From an uncultured Trueperaceae bacterium (GTDB lineage: Bacteria; Deinococcota; Deinococci; Deinococcales; Trueperaceae): a stretch of DNA of 64,000 nucleotides. The translations under genes were made by a program, and so were the position numbers. This document shows positions 14,598-27,303 of this stretch, one piece after another. The stretch covers positions 448,001 through 512,000 of the forward strand of contig CAWFFU010000011.1 of NCBI GenBank assembly GCA_963815215.1. Reading direction: 5' to 3'. Position 1 is the stretch's first letter, and each line of letters starts with the position of its first letter. The notes under the pieces were generated by a model. It was not told the origin of the DNA, ran no database searches, and was given only the letters and a program-made list of their open reading frames with translations.

Positions 14598-15194
14598 TCA
14601 CCCCGGTTCGGACGCCGCCCCCGCCAGCGCTGCATGATGCATCGCGATCAGCCGCTCGAAGCTGACGTCCAGATCGAGCGGGAGACCGAAGCCGCCGGCA
14701 CTCTCGAGCGCGACGAAACCGTGCAGCGAGCTGCGCAACGCCCGCGTGGCGTGGAGGGCTTCGTCGCCCTCGAGGGCATACCCCTGCAGCACACTCACCA
14801 CTACTTGCACCAGCCTCTCGGCGGCCGCCGCGGCGGCCTGCCGGTCCCGCGCGGACGTCGACGCATCGCCCGCGGCGCTCAGGGTCAGGGCGTAGAGACC
14901 CGGGTGTCGATGGGCGAACGCGCGGTACGCCTGCGCCAGCGCGACCAACGCGTCGCGCCCGGACCGGCCTACCGCGGCCCGCTGCAGGCCCTGCTCCAGG
15001 GCTTCCAGGCCCCTGAACCGGAGCGCACCGCGCAGATCGCCGAGTCCGTCGATGTGGTTGTACAGCGACGGCGTCCGCACGCCCAAAGCCTGCGCCAGCG
15101 CGGCCAGGGACAACGCCGACGGGCCCTCCCGGTCGAGGATCTCGGCGGCCCGCTCGACCAGCCGCTCCCGCGTGACGCCGGGTCTACGCGCCAC
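14598..15194 (-). CDS. TetR family regulator (WHG/TetR_C_33-like)
   Basis: LGVRTPSLYNH HTH; LHGFVALE. Confidence 0.9.
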   Translation of the reverse strand: MARRPGVTRERLVERAAEILDREGPSALSLAALAQALGVRTPSLYNHIDGLGDLRGALRFRGLEALEQGLQRAAVGRSGRDALVALAQAYRAFAHRHPGLYALTLSAAGDASTSARDRQAAAAAAERLVQVVVSVLQGYALEGDEALHATRALRSSLHGFVALESAGGFGLPLDLDVSFERLIAMHHAALAGAASEPG

Positions 15195-16116
15195 GCCGCG
15201 TCCGCTCGAGGAACGCGAGCACGGGCGTGGCAACAGCCTCTGGCATCTCGCTGTGCGGGTAGTGGCCGGCTCCCTCGATCATCAACGACTCGCCCCGGAG
15301 GCCGTCGGCCAGCCGGCGAGCCTCGTCGGCCGGATCGGTGAAGTCGGGGTCCTTGCTGCCCATCACCACTAGCGTGGGCGCCGCCACCTCAGCGAGGCGC
15401 TGTGCGATGTCGGGCTCGCTACTGAACATCATGGCCTTGACAGCCTCGAAGCGCCCTGGCTCTGCCAGGTTGGCGCGCAGCGCGGCCCGGTAGGCGCGGA
15501 AGTCCGCGGGCTTGCGGGTCGGGAAGAGGGTGCCGAAGTACGCGCTCCAGGCCGCCACCTTCCAGGGGCCCGCGAACAGCACCCGTGTCAGCGCCTGCAG
15601 CAGCGGCTTCGCCGGTTGCGGCAGCACGAACGGACCGATGAGCACCAAGGCGTCGACCGCGTCCGGCCGCTCGGCGGCCGCCCAAACGGCGGGCGCGGCA
15701 GAGAACGAGTTGCCGACGATGGTGGCGGGCCCCGCATCCAACGCCTCGATGAGCGCCAGAAGGTCGCCGCCCGCGGCCTTCCTGCCGTAGTCGTCCCACC
15801 CCACGCTCGAGCCTCCGTGGCCGCGCAGGTCGAGGCTCACCGTCCGGTAGCCGGCGGCCACCAGCTCGCGAGCGAGGAACCGGTACTCCTGCCGAAGGTC
15901 GCCCAGGCCCGGTACCAGGACCACCAGCGGACCGGTCCCCTCGTCGTCGTAGGCAAGCGTGCCGCCTTCGACCTGGAGACGCCGCTCGGACGCTCCCTTG
16001 GCGGGCCCGGTCGACGCGGTGTGGGTCGACGCGGTGCCGGTCGAGGCGGTGCCGAGGGTCGACGGAGGCGGCGTGACCCCTTCTCTGTTCGGATCTGTTC
16101 CGTTCGTGGAAAACAT
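15184..16116 (-). CDS. Alpha/beta fold hydrolase
   Basis: DLRGHGGS, GNSFS nucleophile, GAGHYPH. Confidence 0.9.
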   Translation of the reverse strand: MFSTNGTDPNREGVTPPPSTLGTASTGTASTHTASTGPAKGASERRLQVEGGTLAYDDEGTGPLVVLVPGLGDLRQEYRFLARELVAAGYRTVSLDLRGHGGSSVGWDDYGRKAAGGDLLALIEALDAGPATIVGNSFSAAPAVWAAAERPDAVDALVLIGPFVLPQPAKPLLQALTRVLFAGPWKVAAWSAYFGTLFPTRKPADFRAYRAALRANLAEPGRFEAVKAMMFSSEPDIAQRLAEVAAPTLVVMGSKDPDFTDPADEARRLADGLRGESLMIEGAGHYPHSEMPEAVATPVLAFLERTRRGA

Positions 16117-16129
16117 GATTAGGTTATAT

Positions 16130-16144
16130 ACTAATGTCCTTAGT
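16130..16144. promoter_or_regulatory. Putative TetR operator in AT-rich promoter
   Basis: ACTAA-TGTCC-TTAGT inverted repeat 14 bp upstream of hydrolase ATG. Confidence 0.55.
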
Positions 16145-16163
16145 TCGTCAACCCCTCCATGCC

Positions 16164-16520
16164 CCGCTCCTGGTCGGCATACCGACCCTGGCCGACCAAC
16201 GCCTGACGCAGGGGGCGCTGGCTTTCGGCCTGCTCATGCCCGCGTTCTCGGGCGGCAACCTGATCGGCTACCTGCTGGCCGGATCGCTGCCCCGCATCGC
16301 CGGCAGGGCCAGGCCGATCCTGATCGCCGCGCTCTTCGCGGCCTTCGGAACGGTCATCGGATCGCTCGGCTTCATCGCGTCCACCTGGGTCGACTTCGGT
16401 CCGCTGTTCGGGCTAGGGGTGGGCAACGGTTACGTCGCCATCCTGCTGTACACGTGGGTGCAGACGCGTACGCCCAGGGCCATGCCGGGGCGCATGATGA
16501 GCATCCTGATGCTCGCCGGC
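16164..16520 (+). pseudogene. MFS transporter fragment
   Basis: hydrophobic helices and TWVQTRTPRAMPGRMMSI loop; no N-half, degenerates at 12-bp duplication; limits approximate. Confidence 0.65.
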
Positions 16521-16767
16521 ACCGACCGCGGCACCGACCGCGGTCGGAACGAGCGAAGCGTGAACCTGTGGGGCTCACGCGCGTGCAGAGCGCTCCTGCA
16601 GCAGGGCAATCGTCCCTGCCGGGGCCGGTGGCAGGCGCCTACCATCGAGGGCACGGCATGGCCGAGAACCCGGGCTTCGCAGCTCCGCGGTCGCGATCAC
16701 GGAGGACCTCGAGCCCGCTCCCGGCCCCACACCGGCGCGCATGCGCACGGGCACGACGCGTCCGCGG

Positions 16768-16875
16768 ATCGGGCTTCAGCTCGCGCTGCTCGACCTGGCA
16801 TTCGGAGTGACCTTCGAGCGCGCCCGTAACCTCGTCGTTCCCTCCGTGGCCCACGTGCCGGTGAACGGCCTCGAT
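16768..16875 (+). pseudogene. CPBP/Abi intramembrane protease C-terminal remnant
   Basis: AFGVTFERARNLVVPSVAHVPVN resembles CPBP terminal motif (..P..AH...N); limits approximate. Confidence 0.45.
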
Positions 16876-16925
16876 TGTGTTCCGCGGCCGCAGGCCGCGC
16901 AACCGGGAGAAGGGGTACCGACTTC

Positions 16926-17483
16926 ATGGACGCTCACGCGCTGGGTCTGCTCGATATCGTGATCCGCACCGTCGCGGCGCACACCGTGACCTACACCGTG
17001 GTCGGCATCGCCGCCATGAACGTCTTCCGCTACACCCGGGCCCTCCGGGAAGACCCCGTGCGTCGGGCGACGCTGCGTGACACCTCCAACCCGTGGGTGA
17101 TGGCCGGTCCGCTCCTCCAACCGCTTCGCGGCGCGCTCTTCGGGCTCGTCTTCTACCTGCTCAGGGACACGCTCTTCGCCCCGAACGGCTGGCTCGTCCT
17201 GTGGGTCATGCTCGTCTCCGTCGGCATCCTCGGCACCTTCGCCCCGGCCCCCTCCTCCATCGAGGGCTGGATCTACCTCGAGCGCTCCGCGAGCGGCCCT
17301 CTCTGGGGCGGCCTCGTCGAGATCCTGACCCAGTCGTTGTTGCTGTCCGTGGTGAGCTTCCTGTGGATCACGAACCCGGCTGCCGCGTGGCTCGATTGGG
17401 TCCTGGGGGTCCTCTTCGTGCTGACGTTGGCGATGCCCGCCCTGGGCCTGGTGGCGGCGCGCGCCGCGCGCCGTTCAGCGTAG
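16926..17483 (+). CDS. Hypothetical integral membrane protein
   Basis: about 5 TM segments, GC3-rich codons, GPLLQPLRG and PAPSSIEG segments. Confidence 0.75.
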   Translation: MDAHALGLLDIVIRTVAAHTVTYTVVGIAAMNVFRYTRALREDPVRRATLRDTSNPWVMAGPLLQPLRGALFGLVFYLLRDTLFAPNGWLVLWVMLVSVGILGTFAPAPSSIEGWIYLERSASGPLWGGLVEILTQSLLLSVVSFLWITNPAAAWLDWVLGVLFVLTLAMPALGLVAARAARRSA

Positions 17484-17668
17484 AAGGGCCGGGAGCGTCC
17501 CGGGGCGCCCACGGCAGACCGCTCCGGCCGATCCCGACGCACCCGACCCGATCGCCAGGCTCCCATCGCCCGGCCAGGCGCCCCGGCCCTGAGGGCCAAA
17601 CGCCATCTCGCTTCCGGTGCGCCGAACCTCTACACTACGGGCGGAGCGGCCGTCGAGGGAGTCCCACC

Positions 17669-18850
17669 ATGGCGGACGTCGGAGCAACCCCCCTGCAGTA
17701 TCTCGACAGGGCCCTGGGAACGGTCCGCGAGCTCGGCCTGATGCCCGAGCACAGCGGCGACCAGGAAGCGCCCATCACGGCTCTGCTGAAGCGGATCAGC
17801 AGCCTCGACGAGGCGAAGGTGGTCGTGATCGCCCGCACGCTCGACCAGGCGTCGCTGTTCAACGACGTCGTGCGCGAGCAGGTGGGCGCCAGCGACATCG
17901 CCACCCGCTACGAGACCATCACCCACGCCTTCAACAGCATCCGCGACGACGCCAAACGCATGGTGGACCAGATCGAGGACGGCAAGATCACCACTTTCGA
18001 GCGCCTCGCCAACGTCTGGATGAAGGTGACCCGCGGCGACGTCGCCTCCCGCTTCGACACCATCAAGCGCAGCTTCCTCGAGGTCACGCGGTCCACGCTG
18101 GATCAGGTCGAGCGTGAGCGGCGCATCCTCGAGGCCTACCAGGACTTCCGAGGGGCGTTGAAGGAGGCCGAGATCCTGGCGCTGGAGGTGCTGAAGGCCG
18201 CCGACGCGGAGCTGGCCGGCGCCCGGCAGGCGGTCGCCGATGCCGCCGACCATGTGACGGCCGCCCCGGCGGACGACCTGACGGAGCGGGCGCGGCGCGA
18301 GCTGGCGCGCGACGAGCGCGTGCGGGCGCTCCAGACGTCGGAGGCGCGCTACCAGATCGCCAAGGACCTGTCCGACAACCTGACCGTCGCCTACCACACC
18401 TCCGAGGTCATCATGACCCGGCTGCTGCAGACCACCAACGCCAAAGAACGCGTGCACGCGCAGTCGGTCAGCTTCTTCTCCACCAACGAGACCGTCCTCA
18501 CGGCGCTCAGCGCCTCGTTCACCGGCATGTTCGGCCTGCACGAGAGCACCCGCACCATCGAAGCGATGAAGGAAGGGGTCGGCAAGTCGCTCGAGGACCT
18601 CGCAGAGGTCGGCGGTCAGGTGCAGGAAGCGGCCCTCCGGGCCGGCTACGGGCCGACGATCCGCGCCGAAGCCGTGAAGAAGCTGGTCGAGTCGGTGGTG
18701 GCCTACCAGACGCACGCACGCGAGATCATCGAGGAGATGCGCGCGAAGAGCACGGCGAACGCGCGTGAGATCCGGGAGGCGGTGGAGGACGGCAAGCGCC
18801 GCCTGGCGCGCCTGGCCGAGCAGGGCGAGGCGTCCGCGCCGACGGCATGA
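17669..18850 (+). CDS. Uncharacterised helical protein, TelA/toxic-anion-resistance-like
   Basis: all-helical 393 aa ORF; -10 TACACT at 17631 and SD GAGGGAG; family call from memory. Confidence 0.7.
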   Translation: MADVGATPLQYLDRALGTVRELGLMPEHSGDQEAPITALLKRISSLDEAKVVVIARTLDQASLFNDVVREQVGASDIATRYETITHAFNSIRDDAKRMVDQIEDGKITTFERLANVWMKVTRGDVASRFDTIKRSFLEVTRSTLDQVERERRILEAYQDFRGALKEAEILALEVLKAADAELAGARQAVADAADHVTAAPADDLTERARRELARDERVRALQTSEARYQIAKDLSDNLTVAYHTSEVIMTRLLQTTNAKERVHAQSVSFFSTNETVLTALSASFTGMFGLHESTRTIEAMKEGVGKSLEDLAEVGGQVQEAALRAGYGPTIRAEAVKKLVESVVAYQTHAREIIEEMRAKSTANAREIREAVEDGKRRLARLAEQGEASAPTA

Positions 18851-19752
18851 CGGAAGCGCCCGCCACCCGGGCCGGGGCCCCGCTCGACGACATCATGCTC
18901 GCCATGGACGTGGTGGACACGCTGCGCCAGCGACGCCAGCTGGTGGAGCAGGAACTCGACGAGCCGGCGCGCGCCCAGGACCTCATCGAGCGTCTGCGGA
19001 AGATCTACGCCGCACAGGGGATCGAGGTTCCCGACGACATCCTGGCGCAGGGCGTGGCCGCCCTGGCGCAGGAACGCTTCGTCCATCGACCGACACCGCC
19101 GTCGCTCGCGACCGCGCTCGCCAGGATCTACGTCACGCGGCGCCGGTGGGGCGCATGGCTGGTCGCCTGCCTGGCGCTGGCCGCCGTGACGTACGGCGCC
19201 TATCGGACCGAGGTCGTCGCCCCGCGCGCCGCGCTGTCTGGGGAGCTGACGGCCGCGCACGCCGCGGTCCTGCGGCTCGCGGCCGTACCGGAAGCCACCG
19301 ATCGCGCCGACACCCTCTACGACGCGGCGCGCACGGCCCTGGGACAGCGCAGCTATGCGGCGGCCCGGGCCGGTCTGGCCGACCTTCAGGCGCTCACGGC
19401 GACGCTCGAGCAGACCTACACCGTGCGCGTGGTCAACCGTCCCGGCCAGCCGTCGGGAGTCTGGCGAATCCCCGACGTGAACCCCACGGCACGGAACTAC
19501 TACCTCATCGTCGAGGCCCGGGGGCCCGACGGGACCTCCGTGACGGCCACCGTACGCAACGAGGAGACCGGCGACAGCGTGCCGGTCGAGCGATGGGGCG
19601 TTCGCGTCGACGAGGCCACCTTCCAGGCCGTGGCACGGGATAAGCAGGACGACGGCATCATCCAGGCCGACATCGTCGGCCTCAAGCGCCGCGGCGCACT
19701 GGACCCCAGCTACACCATCCCCACCACCGGAGCGGCCATCACGCACTGGTAG
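18847..19752 (+). CDS. DUF6384-like single-TM protein
   Basis: LDDIMLAMDVVDTLR N-terminus, one TM, NYYLIVEA and WGVRV; ATGA overlap. Confidence 0.7.
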   Translation: MTEAPATRAGAPLDDIMLAMDVVDTLRQRRQLVEQELDEPARAQDLIERLRKIYAAQGIEVPDDILAQGVAALAQERFVHRPTPPSLATALARIYVTRRRWGAWLVACLALAAVTYGAYRTEVVAPRAALSGELTAAHAAVLRLAAVPEATDRADTLYDAARTALGQRSYAAARAGLADLQALTATLEQTYTVRVVNRPGQPSGVWRIPDVNPTARNYYLIVEARGPDGTSVTATVRNEETGDSVPVERWGVRVDEATFQAVARDKQDDGIIQADIVGLKRRGALDPSYTIPTTGAAITHW

Positions 19753-19771
19753 CGCTCGGAACGGACACGGC

Positions 19772-21187
19772 ATGATCTCGGGACGACAACCCCTGGCCTC
19801 CATCGAAACGGAGGTCGAAAGCGAGCGCAAGGCCAATGAGGAACTGGACCGTCGCGTGGCCGAGGGCAGTGCACGCCTCATGGAGGTCGGCAAGGCGCAG
19901 ACGGCTGCCTACCGCGAGCTGGCCCGGCTGCGCGTCGGCTCGCTGGCAGCCGGGACCGTCACCGAGACGCTCGACGCCGCCGAACAGCGGGTGAGCGCAC
20001 TGTTGCGCAGCCGCGAGGCCGCCACCGAGGCGCTGGCCGACGAACTACGCACCGCCGACGAGGACCGCTCCGCGCTGGAGGCCCAGCGCGCAACGCAGGC
20101 TAGGACCCTGGAACAGGCCGCCGCCGCTGTCGACGCCGCCGAGGCGCGCACGCAGGAGCGCCTCACAGCGCAGCCGGCCTACCGCTCGCAGCTCGATCGC
20201 GCCGAGAAGCTCGACCGCATCGCGAAGCACGCCGAGGAGAAAGCCACGCGGAGCGAGCAGGAGCTGGACGAGAAGGGGCGGGCGTACCGAGAGGACCCCC
20301 TGTTCATGTACCTGTGGAAGCGGCGCTTCGGGACGTCGGACTACCGGGCCGCCCCGCTGTTCCGCTGGCTCGACGGGAAGGTAGCGCTCCTGGTGGGCTA
20401 TGCGGAGCCCCGGGCCGACTACGCCCGCCTCCTGGAGATCCCCGTGCGCCTCCGGGAGCACGCCACCGCGTCCCGCCGACGCGCCGACGTCGAACTCGAC
20501 GAGCTCGCCGAGCTCGACCGGAGAGCGCGCGCTGCCGACGGCATCCCTGCCCTCGAGTCGATCGCAGCGGAGGAGGCGCGGCGGCTCGAGACCCTGGACC
20601 GGGGGCTCGAGCAACGGGCCGCGGCGGTCCAGACGCTGCTCGATCGCAGACAGCGGTTCGCGGCCGGTGAAGACGACGCCTACCGCGAGGCGATCGACGT
20701 CCTCGCCGCCGGTCTGCGCACCGAGCAGCTCCAGGCCCTGCGCCAGGAGGCGCTGGCGACCCCCTTCCCCGAGGATGACGTGGCCATCGGACGTCTGATC
20801 GACCTGCAACAGGAACAGCATCGTCTCGAGACCGCTGCACAGGAGCTCACCGCGGCGTTGCAGCAGCATCGCGACCGCCTCCGTCAGCTCGAGTCGCTCG
20901 GCTCGGAGTTCAGGCGGCGTCAGTACGACCTGCCCGGGCACGGCTTCCAGGACGGCGCCCTGGTCGCGACTGTGCTGGCCAACGTCATCGGCGGGATGCT
21001 CTCCCGCGATGCGCTGTGGCGCGTGCTGGAGCAACAGCGCCGCTACGCCCCGCCGCGGTCCAACCCGACGTTCGGTTCCGGCGGCTTCGGCCGGGGCTCA
21101 CCCTGGGCCGGTGGGCACGGCCCACGCGGGGGCGGCGGCCATGGCGGCGGTCATGGCGGCGGGTTCCGTACCGGCGGCAAGTTCTGA
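19772..21187 (+). CDS. Uncharacterised coiled-coil protein with Gly-rich tail
   Basis: long heptads, YREDPLFMYLW core, C-terminal GGGFRTGGKF. Confidence 0.75.
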   Translation: MISGRQPLASIETEVESERKANEELDRRVAEGSARLMEVGKAQTAAYRELARLRVGSLAAGTVTETLDAAEQRVSALLRSREAATEALADELRTADEDRSALEAQRATQARTLEQAAAAVDAAEARTQERLTAQPAYRSQLDRAEKLDRIAKHAEEKATRSEQELDEKGRAYREDPLFMYLWKRRFGTSDYRAAPLFRWLDGKVALLVGYAEPRADYARLLEIPVRLREHATASRRRADVELDELAELDRRARAADGIPALESIAAEEARRLETLDRGLEQRAAAVQTLLDRRQRFAAGEDDAYREAIDVLAAGLRTEQLQALRQEALATPFPEDDVAIGRLIDLQQEQHRLETAAQELTAALQQHRDRLRQLESLGSEFRRRQYDLPGHGFQDGALVATVLANVIGGMLSRDALWRVLEQQRRYAPPRSNPTFGSGGFGRGSPWAGGHGPRGGGGHGGGHGGGFRTGGKF

Positions 21188-21453
21188 ACGCGCACCTGCT
21201 CCTGCGACCTTGACGTAGCGCGATCGAGCGCGACTGAGGGCGACCGAGCGCGACCGGCGCGCACAGGACGACCGGCCGCGGCCCTCATCGTCCTCCCACC
21301 CATCCTGCACGGTCCTTGCACCTGGCCTCCACCGCTTCCTCGAATCCGACGCCTACCCTCGGAGGCATCGGGAGGCGCCCGGAGCAACCGCCGGGTGAAC
21401 CCCGCACGGCCCCCGCCCCAGCGACCCGCGGTGCGGCCAGGAAGGGAAGGACC

Positions 21454-22131
21454 ATGACCACGATCACCCCCCATCTGAAGCGAGCCACTGTCCGGTTCGG
21501 TACGACGCTTGCCGTGGCTCTCGCGCTCGGCCTAGGACTGGCGTTCGCACAGCCCAGCATCGCCATCGGCAACCTGACGATGCAGAGCGGAACCATGGCG
21601 TCCTACCTCACGAACAGCGCCACCGGCGGCACCACCGGCCTATGCTTCCATAACAGCACCGGCAGCGGCAGCACCAGCTACGCCTGCTTCGAACGTGCTC
21701 TGAGGGTCAGCGGACTCGGCGCCATGGTGAACGGTTCGAAGCCGGTCACCGTCTTCGCGCCCACCGACGCGGCCTTCGCCCACCTCGAGGACACCGTCGG
21801 CGTCGGCGCATTCCAACGCTTCATGGCCAGCCCGACGGCTATGGCCGCCTTCGTCAGGAGCTCGATCGTGAACGGTACCATCACCGTCAACGACCTCGCC
21901 TACCACGCTCCCATCGCGACGGCCGCGACCTCCGTCACCACGGTGGCCGGGACGCCGCTCGCCGTCTCCTTCGGCTCGGTCGGCTACGGCACCTCGAGCA
22001 CTACGGTCGACGTCGGCCCTTCGGGCGCGGTCGACGGCCAGAGCTTCGTCATCGGGACCACCGTCATGTTCGCCGACGGTAGCGCACTGATCCCGCTCGG
22101 CCGCATCACCCTCACCTCCTTGGGCGCCTAG
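21454..22131 (+). CDS. Secreted fasciclin (FAS1) domain protein
   Basis: signal peptide, TVFAPTDAAF motif. Confidence 0.8.
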   Translation: MTTITPHLKRATVRFGTTLAVALALGLGLAFAQPSIAIGNLTMQSGTMASYLTNSATGGTTGLCFHNSTGSGSTSYACFERALRVSGLGAMVNGSKPVTVFAPTDAAFAHLEDTVGVGAFQRFMASPTAMAAFVRSSIVNGTITVNDLAYHAPIATAATSVTTVAGTPLAVSFGSVGYGTSSTTVDVGPSGAVDGQSFVIGTTVMFADGSALIPLGRITLTSLGA

Positions 22132-22275: not shown

Positions 22276-23196
22276 TCACTCCGCCTCACCCGGGCCGAGC
22301 CGCTCCTCCCACGCCTCCAGCGACCGCGGCCAGTCCTTGCCGAGCAGCCTTGACAGCGAGCGGTCGGCGAGCACCGTGCCGCCGGTCTGACAGGTGGCGC
22401 AGTAGTTCGTCTCCCGATCGACGTAGCGGATGCGCTGCACGGGATCGCCACAGCGGGGGCAGGGCTCGCGGTAGCGACCATGTACCGCCATCCCCTCCTG
22501 GAAGGCGGTGAGCTTCGGCCAGCGGCCCCCATCGACGCCCTCCGACAGGCGCGCGATCCAGGTCGCGAGCACCTCCCGAGTGGCGTGGTGGAGGCGATCG
22601 ATCGCCTCCTCGTCGAGCGAGCTGGTGAGCGCGACCGGGGAAAGACGGGCGGCATGCAGGATCTCGTCGGCGTAAGCGCCGCCGATGCCGGCGAACAGGC
22701 TCGGCGTGGTGAGGGCGCGTTTGAGCGTGTGCCGTTCGCTCCGCAGGACCGCGGCGAAGCTCCGCCGGTCGGCCTCGAGCGGCTCCAGCCCGCCGGCGTC
22801 GTGCGGGACCAACCCCGCCTCGCCCACCACCGCGTGCAGCGATGCCATGCGCCGCGTGCCGGCCTCGGTCAGCAGCAGTGTGCCGTGCCCGAAGTCGAAC
22901 GCGGCCAGCCCGCGCTTGCCGGGCAGCCCCGCTCCGGGCTTGCCCCACGACAGGCGCCCGGCCAGCATCAGATGCAGCACCAGGAACAGCGGCGGTGCCG
23001 GCTCCTCGAACGCCAGCACCAGCCGTTTACCGATCCGGCGCGTGCCGGTGACGAGGCGCGCCCTGAAGGCGTCCAGCCCGGGCTCCACCGAGCGCAACAG
23101 GAACACGCTGCGCAGGCGCACCCCGATGAGCTCATGGCCGACGACGCGCTCCGACAGCGCCGCGCGGTAGGCCTCGATGTCGGGCAACTCGGGCAT
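22276..23196 (-). CDS. Fpg/Nei family DNA glycosylase/AP lyase
   Basis: MPELP start, HLMLAG, GIGGAYADEIL H2TH, CPRC..CATC zinc finger. Confidence 0.9.
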   Translation of the reverse strand: MPELPDIEAYRAALSERVVGHELIGVRLRSVFLLRSVEPGLDAFRARLVTGTRRIGKRLVLAFEEPAPPLFLVLHLMLAGRLSWGKPGAGLPGKRGLAAFDFGHGTLLLTEAGTRRMASLHAVVGEAGLVPHDAGGLEPLEADRRSFAAVLRSERHTLKRALTTPSLFAGIGGAYADEILHAARLSPVALTSSLDEEAIDRLHHATREVLATWIARLSEGVDGGRWPKLTAFQEGMAVHGRYREPCPRCGDPVQRIRYVDRETNYCATCQTGGTVLADRSLSRLLGKDWPRSLEAWEERLGPGEAE

Positions 23197-23524
23197 GATG
23201 CGCTCCCCTCCCGGCCCGGTCGCGGGGCGCGCCCGGGCGATCTGTGCGACTCCTCCCCCGATGATAGGGGCGCCCATCGCCCGGCGCGCGCCGGGCCCCG
23301 CCGGGGAGATAGATGAAGCGCATTACACTCCCGCCGGTGGCGCGGGCATAGTCTGAATCCGGTCCACACCTGAGGGGACCATTGAAGGGACGCTCGAGGA
23401 GGCCGCGCGCACGCCGTGGCGTTGCGACTCCCCGCCCACGCTCGGCTGCGCCGCCGCATCGGCCGCGCCCACGTACCCGCCTGCTCGCAGGCGCGGCGCG
23501 GGCGACGCCCGGGGAGGACCCTTC

Positions 23525-23893: not shown

Positions 23894-24700
23894 TCAGCGG
23901 TGCCGCTCGAGGCCCGCCCGCTGCAGCACCAGCGCCGCGAGCTCCTCCACCGACAGCGCGCTGGCATCCTGGAACGGGATGCCGTGGCGCCGGAACAGGC
24001 GTTCGGCCTGGCCCACCTCGAACGCGCAACGACGCTGCGCCGCGTAGGCGCTCCCGGGCCGGCGCTGCTCCCGCAGCTCGTGCAGGCGCTGCGGCGCGAT
24101 CGTCAACCCGAAGAGTCGGCCGCGGTACGGCGCCACCGGTTCCGGTAACCCGTCTCGCTCGAAGTCGTCCTCGGCCAGCGGGTAGTTCGCCGCCCGCACT
24201 CCGTACTGAAGCGCCAGGTAGAGGCAGGTCGGGCTCTTCCCGACCCGCGACACCCCGATCATCACCACTTCGGCATGCCCGTAGCGCCCCACGTTGGTCC
24301 CGTCGTCGGTGGCCAGCGAGTACTCGACCGCATCGATGCGCGCCTGGTAGCTCGCCAGATCCCGGATGCCATGGTAGGCGCCCACGCGCGCCTGCGGCGG
24401 GCTCCCGAACAGTTCCGCCAGCGGTCCCAGGAAGGGCTCGAACAGGTCGAAGTGGGCGCACGGAGCTGAAGCGATGCGCGCCCGGATCGCCGTGTCCGTG
24501 ATCGTCGAGAACACCACCGCGGTCTCGGGCAGGGCCGCGAGCTCCGAGGCCAGCGCGTCGGCACGCTGCGGCGTGTTCACGAACGGTCGCGTGGAGGTGC
24601 GGATGACCAGGCCGGCGAAGCGGGCCAGCAGGCTGTGCCCCAGCACCTCGGCGGTGACGCCGGTATGGTCCGAGACGAAGTACACCGGCCGAGCGGTCAC
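23894..24700 (-). CDS. ppsR: PEP synthase regulatory protein (kinase/pyrophosphorylase)
   Basis: VSDHTGVTAE, DDG, GVSRVGKSPTCLYLA; divergent from ppsA. Confidence 0.9.
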   Translation of the reverse strand: MTARPVYFVSDHTGVTAEVLGHSLLARFAGLVIRTSTRPFVNTPQRADALASELAALPETAVVFSTITDTAIRARIASAPCAHFDLFEPFLGPLAELFGSPPQARVGAYHGIRDLASYQARIDAVEYSLATDDGTNVGRYGHAEVVMIGVSRVGKSPTCLYLALQYGVRAANYPLAEDDFERDGLPEPVAPYRGRLFGLTIAPQRLHELREQRRPGSAYAAQRRCAFEVGQAERLFRRHGIPFQDASALSVEELAALVLQRAGLERHR

Positions 24701-24924
24701 GGGCCCTCCCAACAGCCTGGCGGCGGCCGCACCGCCCGGACTCCGCCCCCGCGGTGCAGGCGTCGTGTGGGCCGTGTACCTCGGCCGGAACACGCGGACC
24801 GCTGGGTGCGGTAGCTTGGGTCCGGACCGAGCAGGTAAAGGCCAGGGGAGCAGCGCCGCTTCGAACTATCGTCGCTTCGGACCATCGTCGCTCCAGAGCA
24901 TAGGCCGCGCCGGGAGGAGACGTC

Positions 24925-27303
24925 GTGGAGTACATCGTCCCGTTCGAGGAAGTCGGGCTCGCCGACATCGCGAGGGTGGGGGGCAAGAACGCGTCGATAG
25001 GTGAGATGATCGGCCACCTGCGCGACGCCAACGTGCGGGTGCCGGAGGGCTTCGCTACCACCGCGGCGGCGTTCGAGGCCCACCTGCACGACACCGGCCT
25101 GAAGGAGCGCATCGCTGCGTTGCTCGAGGACGTCGACGAGCAGGACGTCGGCCGCCTGAGTGAGCGGGGCCGGGAGGTGCGCGCGCTGGTGCTCGCCACG
25201 CCGCTCCCCGCCGAGCTGGCGGACGCCGTGCGTCGGGCCTACCGCGCCATGGGCGGGGTTGCCGAGGCCACCGTGGCCGTCCGCTCGTCGGCGACGGCCG
25301 AGGACCTGGCCGAGGCGTCGTTCGCCGGTCAGCAGGAGACCTTCCTCAACGTGCGGGGCGAGGCGTCGGTGCTCGAGCACGTACGCAAGGTGTACGCCTC
25401 GCTCTTCACCGACCGCGCCATCGCCTACCGGCTCCACCACGGCTTCGAGCACACCGAGGTCGCCATCTCCGTCGGCATCCAGCGCATGGTCCGCAGCGAT
25501 CTCGGCGCCAGCGGCGTGGCCTTCACGCTCGACACCGAGTCGGGGTTCGACGGGGTGGTCTTCGTCACGGCTGCCTACGGGCTCGGGGAGCTGCTGGTGC
25601 AGGGCGCGGTCAACCCCGACGAGTACTACCTGTACAAGCAGGGCCTGCGCGCCGGCAGGCCGGCCGTGCTGCGGCGGCGCCTGGGCTCCAAGGCCGAGAG
25701 GATGGTGTACGGCACGGGCGACGCCCTGGTGGAGACGGTGCCCGTCCCCGAGGACGAGCGGCGCCGCTTCGCCCTCGCCGACCCGGACCTCGCCGACCTG
25801 GGGCGCCAGGCCCTGGCGATCGAGGAGCACTACGGCCGTCCCATGGACATCGAGTGGGCCCGCGACGGCGAGGACGGCCTCATCTACGTGCTGCAGGCGC
25901 GGCCGGAGACCGTCCGGAGCCGCAGCGGCCGGGTGCTGGAGCGCTTCCGCCTGCTCGAGCAGGGCGACATGCTGGTGACCGGCCGCGCCGTCGGCTCGCG
26001 CATCGCCGCCGGCACGGTGCGGGTGATCGCGTCAGCCGACGAGATGGACCGCGTCGAGAAGGGGGACGTGCTGGTCACGGACATGACCGATCCCAACTGG
26101 GAGCCGGTGATGAAACGCGCGGCCGCCATCGTCACCGACCGCGGGGGCCGCACCTGCCACGCCGCCATCATCGCGCGCGAGCTCGACATCCCCGCCGTGG
26201 TCGGTACCGGCGACGGCAGCGAGCGGCTGGCGACCGGCGACGAGGTGACCGTGAGCTGCGCCGAGGGCGACGAGGGACGCGTCTACCGCGGGCGCCCGCG
26301 CTACGACGTGGAGCGCATCGAACTCGACCGCATGCCTCCGCTGGCCGTCGATCTGATGATGAACGTGGCCTCGCCCGATCGCGCCTTCGCCTTCGCGCAG
26401 CTCCCCAACCGGGGGGTGGGCCTGGCCCGGCTGGAGTTCATCATCAACAACGACATCGGCGTTCATCCGCGTGCTTTGCTCGCCTACCCGGACGTGCCGC
26501 CCAAGGTACGTGAGGGCATCGAGCGGCGCAGCGCGGGTTACGGCTCCCCCGCGCGCTTCTTCGAGGAGAAGATCAAGGAGGGCGTCGCCACCATCGCCGC
26601 CGCCTTCGCGCCGGCTCCCGTCATCGTGCGCATGAGCGACTTCAAGTCCAACGAGTACGCCCACCTGCTGGGGGGCGAGGCCTTCGAGCCGCACGAGGAG
26701 AACCCGATGATCGGGTTCCGCGGCGCCTCGCGCTACCGGGCGGCGAGCTTCGCCGACGCCTTCGCCGCCGAGTGCCGCGCGCTGGTGCGGGCGCGCACCG
26801 AGATGGGCCTCGCCAACATCAAGGTGATGATCCCGTTCGTACGCACCGAAGGGGAACTCCTCGACGTGTTGGAACGCATGGCGGAGCACGGCCTGCGTCG
26901 CGGCGAGGACGGTCTGCAGATCATCATGATGTGCGAGGTGCCGTCGAATGCCATCCGGCCCGACGCCTTCCTCCAACACGTCGACGGCTTCTCGATCGGT
27001 TCCAACGACCTCACGCAGTTCACGCTGGCGCTCGACCGCGACTCGGGTCTGGTAGCCGATCTCTTCAACGAACGCGACCCGGCCGTCAAGGAGCTGATGG
27101 CCAACGCCATCGGCGCCTGCCGGAAGGCGGGCAAGTACATCGGCATCTGCGGCCAGGGCCCGTCGGACCACCCGGACCTGGCTCAGTGGCTGCTGGAGCA
27201 GGGGATCGACAGCATCTCGCTCAACCCGGACACGGTGTTGAAGACCTGGCTCTACCTGGCCGGCGAGCGCGACGCCTCGGGCGCCGATCGGGTGGAAGGC
27301 TGA
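24925..27303 (+). CDS. ppsA: Phosphoenolpyruvate synthase
   Basis: [28 protein letters not shown] phospho-His, SIGSNDLTQ. Confidence 0.97.

Follow-up and report, generated by a model that had tools for sequence, protein, structure and literature searches.

What do three neighbouring genes do that recur together from chromosomes to giant phages and match no enzyme family? They form a cassette at positions 17669-21187 of the window (the whole 64,000-nucleotide stretch of DNA analysed here), all on the + strand, and encode proteins of 393 aa (g1), 301 aa (g2) and 471 aa (g3). Our main reading, to which we give a probability of about 40%, is that the cassette specifies a self-contained, membrane-anchored, non-enzymatic assembly that would work like the Psp and TelA-XpaC membrane-integrity modules while being a member of neither. 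Its features are:

17631..17636, + strand: TACACT, a putative -10 hexamer for a promoter of the cassette itself (sequence; same spacing in relatives)
17655..17661, + strand: Shine-Dalgarno sequence GAGGGAG, 7 nt 5' of the g1 ATG, within a leader conserved in Deinococcota-clade relatives
17669..18850, + strand: g1, a 393-aa soluble all-helical protein (homologues, alignment, AF2 model)
18461..18646, + strand: g1 aa 265-326, a hydrophobic stretch (VSFFSTNETVLTALSASFTGMFGL) and the segment after it, both conserved (conservation, AF2 pLDDT)
18847..19752, + strand: g2, a 301-aa DUF6384 protein and the only integral membrane component (Pfam PF19911; alignment)
18847..19140, + strand: g2 aa 1-98, a highly conserved helical N-domain, putatively cytoplasmic (PLDDVMLAMDVVDTLR ... 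YAAQGIEVPD ... RFVY; alignment)
19147..19209, + strand: g2 aa 101-121, a single predicted transmembrane helix (hydropathy, alignment)
19399..19749, + strand: g2 aa 185-301, a conserved beta-rich C-terminal domain ending I-T-x-W (alignments; phage homologues)
19772..21187, + strand: g3, a 471-aa coiled-coil protein without a family, putatively cytoplasmic (family searches; AF2 model)
20279..20461, + strand: g3 aa 170-230, an invariant aromatic core (YR.DPLFMYLW.R.YG...Y....R.LD..VA ... RL.EIP.RL.EHA; invariant columns)
21056..21184, + strand: g3 aa 429-471, a disordered Gly-rich tether with the end peptide GGF-R/S-T/S-G-G-x-F (pLDDT, alignment)

A tightly coupled cassette with constant gene order

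Re-reading of the sequence confirmed the coordinates, gene lengths, ATGA overlap and 19-bp gap given in an earlier note on this DNA. The g1 stop codon (18848-18850) overlaps the g2 ATG (18847-18849), and 19 nt (19753-19771) lie between the g2 stop and the g3 start. In the ORF listing, the g1 frame is open back to a GTG at 17093 (585 aa); since the homologues are 390-394 aa long (query coverage, 97-100%) and M1 is invariant in an alignment of 13 sequences, we place the g1 start at 17669. The -10 hexamer that the note had proposed at 17631 is indeed present, and TACACT, TATGAT or TACAAT occurs at an equal distance from the ATG in seven Deinococcota-clade loci, which also share a near-identical leader downstream of it; this conservation supports a real -10 element. 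A consensus scan of positions 17300-21500 returned no two-hexamer sigma-70 promoter and no terminator. With a GC content of 70-73%, the region abounds in long shadow ORFs (antisense 361, 396, and 329 aa). Homologues exist only for the three + strand ORFs and not for the antisense ones, so the cassette genes are more than chance ORFs. At E ≤ 1e-3, all 8000 of the 8000 scored candidates matched g1 (at least 8000 homologues), and 782 of 8000 matched g3.

The three genes are strictly co-inherited. Their order was constant in all 80 genome loci fetched, as far as the contig reached, which bears out the operon-like unit proposed earlier; g2 was present at 78 loci and g3 at 74, and each miss had no more than ∼420 nt of contig remaining. 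Only these three formed conserved gene clusters across the loci (77, 74, and 65 loci, with the next true neighbour cluster at 12). Of 73 loci, 54 had the 4-nt overlap of g1 stop and g2 start; between g2 and g3, the median gap was 10 nt. The 11 plasmid records that matched range from 323 kb to 1.39 Mb; every one has both g1 and the DUF6384 C-domain, and the window's g2 itself matched 10 of them. In each of four annotated contexts, a gene for a similar-sized protein lies directly 3' of g1-g2, and the third-gene protein of Pseudomonas aeruginosa matched g3 with an hhalign probability of 99.7%.

Horizontal spread and phage carriage

The trio does recur in Proteobacteria, as the note had stated, and it extends further. 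The cassette is horizontally mobile and patchily distributed; it occurs in many bacterial phyla as well as on megaplasmids and in giant phages, and its carriers include large Pseudomonas megaplasmids (some from clinical P. aeruginosa), rhizobial megaplasmids, and two jumbo phages. The nonchromosomal carriers found are very large replicons (the plasmids above and the two phages, with genomes of 209 and 262 kb). In the g1 tree, the Deinococcota copies are nested in a group mostly of Gammaproteobacteria, which indicates horizontal transfer and points to spread of the cassette by this route. An acquisition of this kind had been suggested before; the tree and the patchiness fit it, but a recent event does not agree with an operon GC (0.69-0.73) equal to that of the flanks or with a site common to the window genome and a congener. 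The cassette is dispensable, as it has been lost from two congeners, one with ∼1.6 kb between the flanks and the other with 100-bp and 50-bp remnants. The description of gene remnants beside the locus was only partly right: the first ∼117 aa of the upstream ORF (16134-16829) align with the 347-position MFS_1 model over positions 222-339 only, and their score of 29.4 bits is below the cut-off of 33.4.

In some lineages, the neighbouring genes are of a stress type: 10 gammaproteobacterial loci have a BON+LysM gene immediately upstream of the cassette, and a Bradyrhizobium plasmid has a YsnF/AvaK gene on the upstream side. Such neighbours occur in a minority of the related loci, and most flanks hold housekeeping genes. 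Strict sigma-54, sigma-E, and sigma-32 patterns were found in none of 75 upstream regions. A weak sign of expression comes from a salt-marsh metatranscriptome, in which short contigs fall on all three genes at 94-99.5% identity (one run of one study, at low depth).

Jumbo phage phiR1-37 carries the full trio as g190-g192, which are classed as constitutive and whose functional group is given as "uncharacterized" or left blank, not as "virion structural protein" (PMC4848604 Table S2). Mean total gene reads in early, middle, and late infection are 32,683, 39,000, and 41,993 for g190; 13,922, 14,582, and 16,006 for g191; and 16,261, 20,881, and 24,416 for g192 (PMC4848604 Table S2). Transcription of g190 is top tier from 2-5 min on in a latent period of 50 min, and the host psp operon is induced during the infection. 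This high transcription by a phage from early infection speaks against the defence role that had been considered, as do the lack of a defence-island context and the search of PADLOC-DB 2.0, which returned no coherent matches (best E, 0.0011 for g1, to Cas6e at 17.6 bits; 0.062 for g3; none for g2).

g2, a DUF6384 protein and predicted membrane anchor

The middle protein had been called DUF6384-like, and by profile match it is a full-length member of this family: PF19911 matched at an E value of 3.5e-113 (378.2 bits; cut-off, 25), with g2 aa 8-301 covering profile positions 3-308 of 308, and the match was confirmed on the genome. DUF6384 is itself only a sequence definition. The family is absent from 14 well-known control genomes, and no mention of DUF6384 or PF19911 was found in the literature searched. 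Nor did that literature yield a published study of the cassette, and the family's absence from the control genomes may be the reason for the neglect.

Within the N-domain, 26 columns between aa 13 and 82 are invariant in 20 sequences. The transmembrane helix gives a hydropathy peak of 1.43 at aa 101-119; a hydrophobic segment of 20-23 residues occupies its position in all aligned homologues, and g2 is the only one of the three proteins with a transmembrane helix in all homologues examined. As read from the sequences, the flank N-terminal to this helix is rich in R/K, and the flanking charges suggest an N-in/C-out topology; the C-terminal beta-rich domain is probably periplasmic. Both end domains are conserved despite a stalk whose length varies by lineage, with ∼60 aa here against ∼230 aa in phages and on the Pseudomonas plasmid. 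The C-terminal domain is also kept in the phages phiR1-37 and Dfl-JY45.

Phage Dfl-JY45 shows that the cassette is modular, since the g2-g3 pair also occurs without g1. This phage encodes the DUF6384 C-part of g2 (E = 1.5e-47) and g3 (hhalign, 99.1%), and no g1 was found in its whole genome. Its g2 has an unrelated N-terminus in place of the canonical N-domain, and the joint lack of that domain and of g1 fits a docking of g1 on the g2 N-domain.

g3, a coiled-coil protein with a conserved tail

As with g1, no Pfam, NCBIfam, PADLOC, or PHROG family matched g3. Its AF2 model (pLDDT, 85.1) is all helical up to aa 424. The two motifs singled out earlier are both present in g3: YREDPLFMYLW is aa 172-182 of the aromatic core, which aligns to the Pseudomonas plasmid and Dfl-JY45 homologues, and the tail ends in GGGFRTGGKF. 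A "late hydrophobic helix" noted between them in the same reading is short and polar in homologues. The tether (pLDDT, about 40) has an insert of lineage-specific length, and four of its residues (F465, G468, G469, and F471) do not vary among 31 sequences; the homologues in phiR1-37 and Dfl-JY45 end in GGFSSSDSF and VTGGGF, respectively. Structure matches are of the coiled-coil type only (SMC, MukB, and Rad50 arms; rmsd, 15-40 Å). An SMC/MukB-type ATPase is not supported: only arm segments align structurally, and SMC_prok_B scored 11.4 bits against a cut-off of 567.

Arms of this type, together with the ruler-like constancy of both g2 end domains at either end of a variable stalk, also suit an envelope-spanning tether or scaffold that is no stress system. 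In such a structure, the stalk and end domain of g2 would connect the inner membrane with peptidoglycan or an outer layer, and g1 and g3 would form a cytoplasmic coiled-coil lattice positioning, for example, a large replicon, the division site, or a pole. The constitutive, noninduced transcription in phiR1-37 agrees with it, and so does the large size of all carriers outside chromosomes, although large replicons simply carry more genes and this bias may mean nothing. We consider the scaffold unlikely, given the failed SMC match, the lack of any DNA-binding or NTPase family match, and the loss of the cassette without replacement in congeners.

g1, a highly conserved helical protein

g1 is the most conserved of the three proteins: the versions encoded at the Gammaproteobacteria loci are 67-74% identical to that of this Deinococcota genome. 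Clustering of its family at 90% identity leaves at least 8000 clusters, and at 50% identity there are 582 representatives. For a gene that is dispensable and moves horizontally, conservation of this degree implies that many structural constraints act at once, as would be expected of a self-assembling scaffold. The AF2 model (pLDDT, 76.6) has a long hairpin formed by helices 125-198 and 204-294, and the conserved aa 289-326 are left unplaced (pLDDT under 50). With a Kyte-Doolittle mean of 0.79, the hydrophobic stretch is not a transmembrane helix. Neither g1 nor g3 has an N-terminal hydrophobic segment or a hydropathy window reaching 1.6.

"Cell surface protein" is the name of g1-family members in some NCBI records, and the family has no Pfam model. 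Export or surface display of g1 with the help of g2 and g3 would follow from such names, which include "merozoite surface protein 3b" on Pseudomonas plasmids; no experiment behind them was found in the literature searched, and they are typical carry-over among low-complexity and coiled-coil proteins. Taken with the absence of an N-terminal hydrophobic segment in g1 and of a secretion-system family match in the three proteins or the conserved context, this makes display very improbable.

g1 had also been called TelA-like. TelA/YaaN/KlaA proteins (PF05816; with XpaC in Firmicutes) are, like g1, all-helical cytoplasmic proteins of ∼400 aa whose gene adjoins a membrane-protein gene, and the literature links them to envelope-active compounds. 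g1 might belong to the TelA superfamily as a very remote member, in which case the cassette would be the proteobacterial-type equivalent of TelA with its membrane partner. In the ESM Atlas, g1 is placed beside clusters auto-named "cell surface protein," one of which (rank 5; score, 0.97; 312 members) has Pfam TelA in 52%. Every sequence test of this kinship failed, however. The Pfam TelA model (cut-off, 30 bits) found no match in g1 itself at E ≤ 0.1, none in a six-frame search of this genome at E ≤ 10, none in 72 g1-family members at E ≤ 0.01, and none in 14 further members at E ≤ 1; hhalign gave a probability of 0.5% (E = 0.12) with a narrow TelA alignment of 6 sequences from this phylum (Neff, ∼2), and the g1 profile missed the TelA genes of 5 TelA-bearing genomes. 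The membrane partner here is DUF6384 rather than XpaC, and a coiled-coil protein is encoded as a third component. Within this phylum, all 30 genomes of one genus (g17), which belongs to a different family of the order, have TelA, and a search of 3 genomes from the family to which the window belongs found none; a profile search found no TelA chain in the PDB. Membership of g1 in the TelA superfamily seems improbable to us.

Fold searches yielded only generic long helical bundles (ClyA family, PspA), within the noise for helical proteins. Foldseek with g1, a check proposed in the earlier note, found no match at E ≤ 0.001, and its best rows include the AhlB pre-pore (E = 0.021), ClyA (0.031), MakA (0.033), and SmhB (0.036). 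These rows raise the prospect of a membrane-permeabilising effector, in which g1 would be a ClyA-like alpha-helical pore former restrained by g2 and g3; its release would depolarise the cell and serve abortive infection or defence, competition, or the timing of phage lysis. The hydrophobic stretch and the AF2-unplaced segment sit where ClyA-type proteins have their membrane-inserting head, and the cassette is mobile and patchy, like defence genes. The stretch is weak, however, and neither PADLOC nor the gene context indicates defence. The tripartite toxins of the family (AhlABC, SmhABC, Mak) have paralogous, soluble components, whereas g1 and g3 are not paralogues (hhalign probability, 0.8%) and g2 is a bitopic DUF6384 protein, which speaks against a toxin of this tripartite kind. 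Lethality is also hard to square with the top-tier transcription of g190 so early in the latent period, and we hold a pore former to be quite unlikely.

A proposed membrane-anchored assembly

Searches of Pfam, NCBIfam, and PADLOC gave no enzyme-family match for the cassette, in agreement with the earlier reading that none of the proteins has an enzymatic motif. Its topology, binding partners, oligomerisation, and role in stress or membrane integrity we infer as follows. In the membrane-integrity assembly that is our main reading, g2 would be the anchor: its conserved cytoplasmic head of three helices would be followed by a single transmembrane helix and, across the membrane, by a helical stalk that differs in length between lineages and by the beta-rich end domain. 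Made in step with g2, g3 would be its cytoplasmic coiled-coil partner, whose flexible Gly- or Ser-rich tether would end in a short conserved docking peptide. The elongated helical-bundle protein g1, the likely effector, would be brought to the inner membrane face via the g2 head, the g3 tail, or both, and would self-associate there to stabilise or reshape the membrane under envelope stress.

This working principle would resemble that of PspA-PspBC, LiaH-LiaI, or TelA-XpaC, although g1, g2, and g3 are not members of these families. The earlier note had suggested a Psp-like or membrane-remodelling role, and we still see in this the best analogy. No PspA_IM30 match was found for g1 or 72 family members, and PspA is about half the size of g1; PspB and PspC lack the large conserved extracytoplasmic domain of g2, the Psp and LiaH-LiaI modules have no g3 counterpart, and none of the 75 upstream regions showed a strict sigma-54 pattern. 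In favour of the assembly we count the linkage, the g2 anchor, the absence of an enzyme match, the conservation of g1 with its hairpin and hydrophobic patch, and the modularity, as well as the phiR1-37 transcription, the stress-type neighbours in some lineages, and the weak metatranscriptome signal. Against it count the absence of detected homology to PspA, TelA, LiaH, or any characterised membrane-stress protein, together with the missing stress-sigma pattern, the dispensability, and the mostly housekeeping flanks.

A bolder version, which we regard as possible if somewhat doubtful, is that the cassette encodes an envelope-linked membrane machine of a class not recognised before, which would share no ancestry with Psp/ESCRT-III, TelA, or ClyA. 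Here g2 would be a bitopic "ruler" reading the state of the outer envelope, g3 a tethered coiled-coil adaptor, and g1 an ultra-conserved helical effector coating or repairing the inner membrane, captured by giant phages and megaplasmids so that the host membrane stays energised through long infections or when carriage is costly. The range of carriers and the early top-tier phage transcription suggest a portable, generally useful membrane function. Working out the cassette could add a new bacterial membrane-maintenance system to a short list, and would account for a strongly expressed gene block in the "dark matter" of jumbo phages.

Gene structure and surroundings of the cassette

The cassette consists of three genes, here called g1, g2 and g3, in an assembly of 3.3 Mb that is 97% complete; its close protein relatives carry the labels Deinococcales or Trueperaceae. 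The features of the region are as follows.

16875-17483, +, 202-aa hydrophobic protein without a Pfam family, directly upstream of the cassette
17631-17636, +, putative −10 element TACACT preceding the g1 start, with same-offset hexamers in Deinococcota-clade loci
17655-17661, +, Shine-Dalgarno sequence GAGGGAG preceding the g1 start
17669-18850, +, g1, 393 aa
18847-19752, +, g2, 301 aa
19772-21187, +, g3, 471 aa
21316-22131, +, fasciclin-domain protein, downstream neighbour
22276-23277, −, Fpg/Nei DNA glycosylase, downstream neighbour
23894-24793, −, PEP synthase regulatory kinase/pyrophosphorylase, downstream neighbour
24925-27303, +, long ORF following the kinase/pyrophosphorylase gene, which we take for PEP synthase from its translation alone

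As the earlier note had described, g1 and g2 overlap in an ATGA, and the ORF coordinates leave 19 nt between g2 and g3. The call of the ORF finder for g1 begins further 5′, at GTG 17093; we placed the start at 17669 because homologues are 390 to 394 aa long with query coverage of 97 to 100%, and M1 is invariant in an alignment of 13 sequences. Since genome GC is 70 to 73%, long antisense shadow ORFs overlie all three genes; homology identifies the + strand ORFs as the real ones.

A generic scan of 17300-21500 returned neither a two-hexamer sigma-70 promoter nor an intrinsic terminator. The −10 element of its own that the earlier note had assigned to the cassette (TACACT at 17631) nevertheless gained support, as TACACT, TATGAT or TACAAT is found at the same offset in seven Deinococcota-clade loci, followed by a near-identical leader. 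Because both the offset and the leader are conserved, the cassette likely has its own promoter. Strict sigma-54, sigma-E and sigma-32 patterns, which divergent sites would escape, matched 0 of 75 upstream regions. A block, GGGCCAAACGCCATC..., lies about 90 nt upstream of g1 in the Deinococcota-clade loci L009-L013, L081 and L083 (window 17560-17668), and the 5′ leader GGTGGAGCGGCCGTCGAGGGAG is near-identical across them. This conservation exceeds what the ∼20% protein divergence would lead one to expect, and may point to a site for a regulator or to structure in the leader.

The 202-aa protein is kept at 80% DNA identity beside the same flanks in two cassette-free congeners (genomes G003 and G004), and is therefore not part of the cassette. 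Further upstream, an ORF at 16134-16829 (+) abuts the start of a divergent alpha/beta-hydrolase gene at 15184-16116 (−). Its first ∼117 aa align with no more than the C-terminal third of MFS transporters (positions 222 to 339 of the 347 in MFS_1), and the remainder is Arg-rich text. It looks like the remnant of a truncated MFS transporter, which partly agrees with the placement of the cassette beside gene remnants in the earlier note, but the match (29.4 bits) is below the cut-off. The downstream neighbours are ordinary.

The three proteins

g2, previously described as DUF6384-like, is a full-length member of that family (PF19911, E 3.5e-113). An alignment of 20 homologues resolved an N-terminal segment with 26 invariant columns (aa 13-82), a hydrophobic segment of 20 to 23 residues (aa 101-121 in the window; Kyte-Doolittle peak 1.43), a helical, poorly conserved region and a conserved beta-rich C-terminal domain ending I-T-x-W, in keeping with the single transmembrane segment and the beta-rich outer domain ascribed to it. 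From R/K residues on the N-side of the hydrophobic segment, we infer an N-in/C-out topology. The middle of the protein is ∼170 aa longer on the Pseudomonas plasmid and in phage versions, with both ends kept. A search of the ESM Atlas with the C-domain (aa 185-301), skipping DUF6384 clusters, gave no usable match.

g1 matched no Pfam, NCBIfam, PADLOC or PHROG family, and neither did 72 aligned relatives (26 to 80% identity) or 14 more distant ones. The AlphaFold2 model from the 72-sequence alignment (pLDDT 76.6, pTM 0.69) is all-helical, with a long hairpin formed by helices 125-198 and 204-294. Residues 289-326, directly after the conserved hydrophobic stretch VSFFSTNETVLTALSASFTGMFGL, have pLDDT <50 despite their conservation. 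An uncontrolled complex prediction of g1 with g2 aa 1-98, built on their family alignments, reached ipSAE values of 0.03 and 0.00, where the mark is 0.32, and speaks neither for nor against a contact. Three apparent g1-g2 fusions in the representative library (P0304, P0349 and P0391) were read at residue level as in-frame g1 and g2 pieces alternating with Arg/Pro-rich out-of-frame text. The underlying gene calls, made on high-GC metagenome contigs, are frameshifted, and the proteins are not Rosetta-stone fusions; inference of fusions from length is therefore unsafe in this family.

g3 belongs to no Pfam, NCBIfam or PADLOC family and is not a paralogue of g1 (hhalign 0.8%). Its AlphaFold2 model (pLDDT 85.1) is helical up to aa 424 and then has a disordered tail. 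The aromatic core and Gly tail pointed out in the earlier note proved to be conserved: across 31 homologues, the YR.DPLFMYLW region is invariant, as are F465, G468, G469 and F471, while the Gly-rich stretch ahead of the end varies in length by as much as ∼100 columns. What the earlier note called a late hydrophobic helix (aa 392-410, peak 1.38) did not fare as well; it is short and contains N or D in homologues, and we do not take it to span the membrane.

Sequence and profile searches of the PDB returned nothing significant, the best rows being ExoU for the g1 profile (E 0.09), a K+ channel for g2 (E 0.028) and prefoldin for g3 (E 0.37), and PHROGs held no family for the three window proteins or their three counterparts in the jumbo phage phiR1-37. 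No enzyme family was matched by any of the three proteins, as the absence of enzymatic motifs had indicated. The genes form a self-contained cassette in which one product is a bitopic membrane protein and its two partners are soluble and helical. An export function is a reading to which we give very little weight.

Linkage and distribution

Every one of the 8000 candidates scored for g1 passed, so that its family has at least 8000 clusters at 90% identity; an exhaustive HMMER search (E ≤ 1e-3) gave 582 representatives at 50% identity, and for g3, 782 matches were obtained. Among one-genome-per-species contigs, relatives of g1 are encoded in at least 278 of 597 pattern matches. For the best 80 of these, tblastn detected g2 in 78 loci and g3 in 74, invariably downstream of g1 and without any change of order, and every miss had at most about 420 nt of contig remaining. 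The three genes thus co-occur well beyond the window. In 54 of 73 loci, the stop of g1 and the start of g2 share 4 nt; g2 and g3 are separated by a median of 10 nt. When 3188 ORFs were clustered all against all, only the cassette genes and their shadow ORFs recurred widely (77, 74 and 65 loci), and the largest cluster of true neighbours spanned 12 loci.

Neighbours are lineage-specific and include MobA/MobB/MoeA and an ABC ATPase. Ten related gammaproteobacterial loci (e.g., L035:6344-6904) from Thiocystis, Thiorhodococcus, Thiocapsa and two other lineages have a BON+LysM gene of the osmotic-stress type as the gene next to g1 on its upstream side, and a YsnF/AvaK gene lies upstream on a Bradyrhizobium plasmid (L101:4782-5417). 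Among the matches listed, the titles of the records include Chromatiaceae, Thiodiazotropha, Sedimenticolaceae, Cellvibrionales, Arenicellales and Defluviimonas, so the trio occurs in Proteobacteria as stated in the earlier note, and also Deinococcales, Nitrospiraceae, Chthoniobacteraceae, Hydrogenedentes and a Bdellovibrio MAG; MAG labels may reflect binning errors.

Loss and horizontal transfer

Full-length g2 is present in 7 of 9 congeners of the window genome and in 5 of 15 other genera of its family; none of the 16 genomes that represent the order's other families has it. One related genome (G008) is collinear with the window at 94% identity. In G004 (81% complete), the same flanks enclose only ∼1.6 kb, compared with 5.5 kb in the window. 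At the syntenic site of G003 (C4:885630-885844), 100 bp of g2 (81% identical) and 50 bp of g3 (85%) survive as remnants of a decayed cassette copy, set apart from the upstream flank by ∼14 kb of other DNA. Because the flanks stand without the cassette in G004 and with remnants in G003, the cassette is ancestral at this site, with two later losses, and is dispensable.

One Deinococcales MAG (contigs L010 and L011; also G005) apparently carries two divergent whole cassettes, with 90% and 80% identity to the window in g1 and 82% and 69% in g2. This could reflect duplication, a second acquisition or mixed binning.

In a quick IQ-TREE analysis of 95 g1 rows, midpoint rooted and with long branches on distant rows, the Deinococcota rows formed a single clade (8 rows, SH-aLRT 100) nested several supported forks inside a 77-row, mostly gammaproteobacterial group (SH-aLRT 96). 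Dispersed through this larger group are also rows from Nitrospirota, Hydrogenedentota, Bdellovibrionota, Verrucomicrobiota and Alphaproteobacteria, and g1 identity across phyla is 67 to 74%. This nesting and the cross-phylum identity indicate horizontal transfer. The earlier suggestion of horizontal acquisition is upheld to this extent, but GC content gave no sign of recent arrival.

Carriage by plasmids and jumbo phages

By tblastn, g1 was found on 11 of 72,556 plasmid records, all of 323 kb to 1.39 Mb (Pseudomonas, 7; Microvirga, Bradyrhizobium, Methylorubrum and Rhizobium, 1 each), and the DUF6384 C-domain on the same 11. Non-pathogenic carriers of the cassette include Methylorubrum extorquens AM1, whose copy is on a megaplasmid, and Thiocapsa roseopersicina. 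Consecutive genes for g1, DUF6384 and a hypothetical protein are annotated on the Bradyrhizobium plasmid, on a 398-kb IncP plasmid of P. aeruginosa and on pMPPla107. In the P. aeruginosa plasmid, g1 is annotated "merozoite surface protein 3b" and the third gene is a whole-length g3 homologue, tail included (hhalign 99.7%, E 1e-26). The pMPPla107 trio lies at about 566 to 570 kb of CP031226.1. For skaA of that plasmid, a preprint places the causal SNP at 57,137 bp and a deletion at 131 to 499 kb (bioRxiv 10.1101/538629); provided that the coordinates correspond, both lie outside the trio, and we rejected a link. Both pMPPla107 and phiR1-37 (g187) encode a metallophosphoesterase close to the trio, but the two show no detectable relation (BLASTP E 0.028 over 23 aa), and a common neighbour was likewise dismissed.

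phiR1-37 (262 kb) encodes g190, 38% identical to g1, then the DUF6384 protein g191 (E 4.7e-26) and g192. The last has no significant similarity to g3 (hhalign 5%; BLASTP nil against the Pseudomonas homologue); it opens with a coiled coil, has in its middle an aromatic motif that aligns with YREDPLFMYLW and finishes in a Ser-rich tail whose last residues are GGFSSSDSF, and on position, size and architecture only we call it g3-like. The Dolichospermum phage Dfl-JY45 (209 kb) encodes a DUF6384 protein (C-part E 1.5e-47) and, 3 nt after it, a clear g3 homologue (hhalign 99.1%) whose tail ends VTGGGF. The N-terminus of its DUF6384 protein is unrelated to the canonical g2 N-domain (aa 1-98), and the g1-family profile found no g1 in the whole genome at E ≤ 1. 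From this one example, therefore, g2-g3 is the core pair and g1 accompanies the canonical N-domain. A DUF6283 protein (L109:2592-2975, E 3e-15) immediately precedes the pair, with overlapping stop and start, and might be an alternative first component in place of g1. Pattern-limited scans of IMG/VR viral contigs with g1 and g2 alignments found no relative, and a scan with g190 found phiR1-37 itself only.

Expression

Transcript data for the phage genes are available in Table S2 of Leskinen et al. 2016 (PMC4848604). Mean total gene reads in the early, middle and late phases were 32,683, 39,000 and 41,993 for g190; 13,922, 14,582 and 16,006 for g191; and 16,261, 20,881 and 24,416 for g192. All three are in class "NO" (<40% change between phases), and are therefore constitutive from 2 to 5 min. 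The 2.3- to 2.7-fold step in reads from g190 to g191 fits a terminator annotated between them in the phage record. Among rows g001-g128 and g187-g194 of that table, comparable reads were seen only for g059, g063, g118 and late g101, and reads of the neighbours g187, g189 and g193 were 5 to 600 times lower. The functional-group entry there is "uncharacterized" for g190 and g191 and blank for g192, and not "virion structural protein." Among the host genes, pspA-D are given as induced in that study.

For the window cassette, short contigs (151 to 222 nt, 94 to 99.5% identical) from one salt-marsh metatranscriptome run, a single study at depth 2 to 4 without a DNA-contamination control stretch, map to g1, g2 and g3. 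They cover 13 of 30 bins, the uncovered parts being uninformative, and are a weak sign of transcription.

Comparison with known systems and proposed role

We found no paper on the families of this cassette, which are without a characterised member. Expression of the genes is coupled, and they are inherited and transferred as a unit. Every sequence comparison of g1 with TelA was negative, which speaks against the "TelA-like" label, although the TelA alignment was narrow (6 sequences from TelA-bearing genomes of this phylum) and a profile search found no TelA structure in the PDB. In the ESM Atlas, g1 sits with clusters named "cell surface protein," and in one of them 52% of the members carry Pfam TelA; this neighbour is a lead rather than a test, and a very remote relation is possible. 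TelA itself is present in 30 of 30 genomes of a genus from another family of the order (g17) and in 0 of 3 from the window's own family. That the cassette is a remote module of the TelA superfamily, which would overlap with the membrane-integrity reading below, is on this evidence unlikely.

Foldseek against the PDB gave nothing at E ≤ 0.001 for g1 or g3. Weak rows for g1 include chemoreceptor hairpins and ClyA-family toxins. With no PADLOC match and no defence-island context, the proposed defence role was not borne out, and a latent pore former or defence system seems quite improbable. g3 returned coiled-coil arms only. A structural tether or scaffold is a rival reading that seems as unlikely as the TelA-superfamily module.

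Our preference, at a probability of about 0.4, is for an assembly in membrane integrity or remodelling that would work like Psp or TelA-XpaC. This reading draws on the architecture, on the extreme conservation of g1, on capture by elements that put the membrane under prolonged stress, on the high, early and non-structural expression recorded for phiR1-37 in Table S2 and on the occasional stress-type neighbours. In such an assembly, g2 would be the anchor and outward-facing sensor, g3 a tethered adaptor and g1 a self-associating effector.
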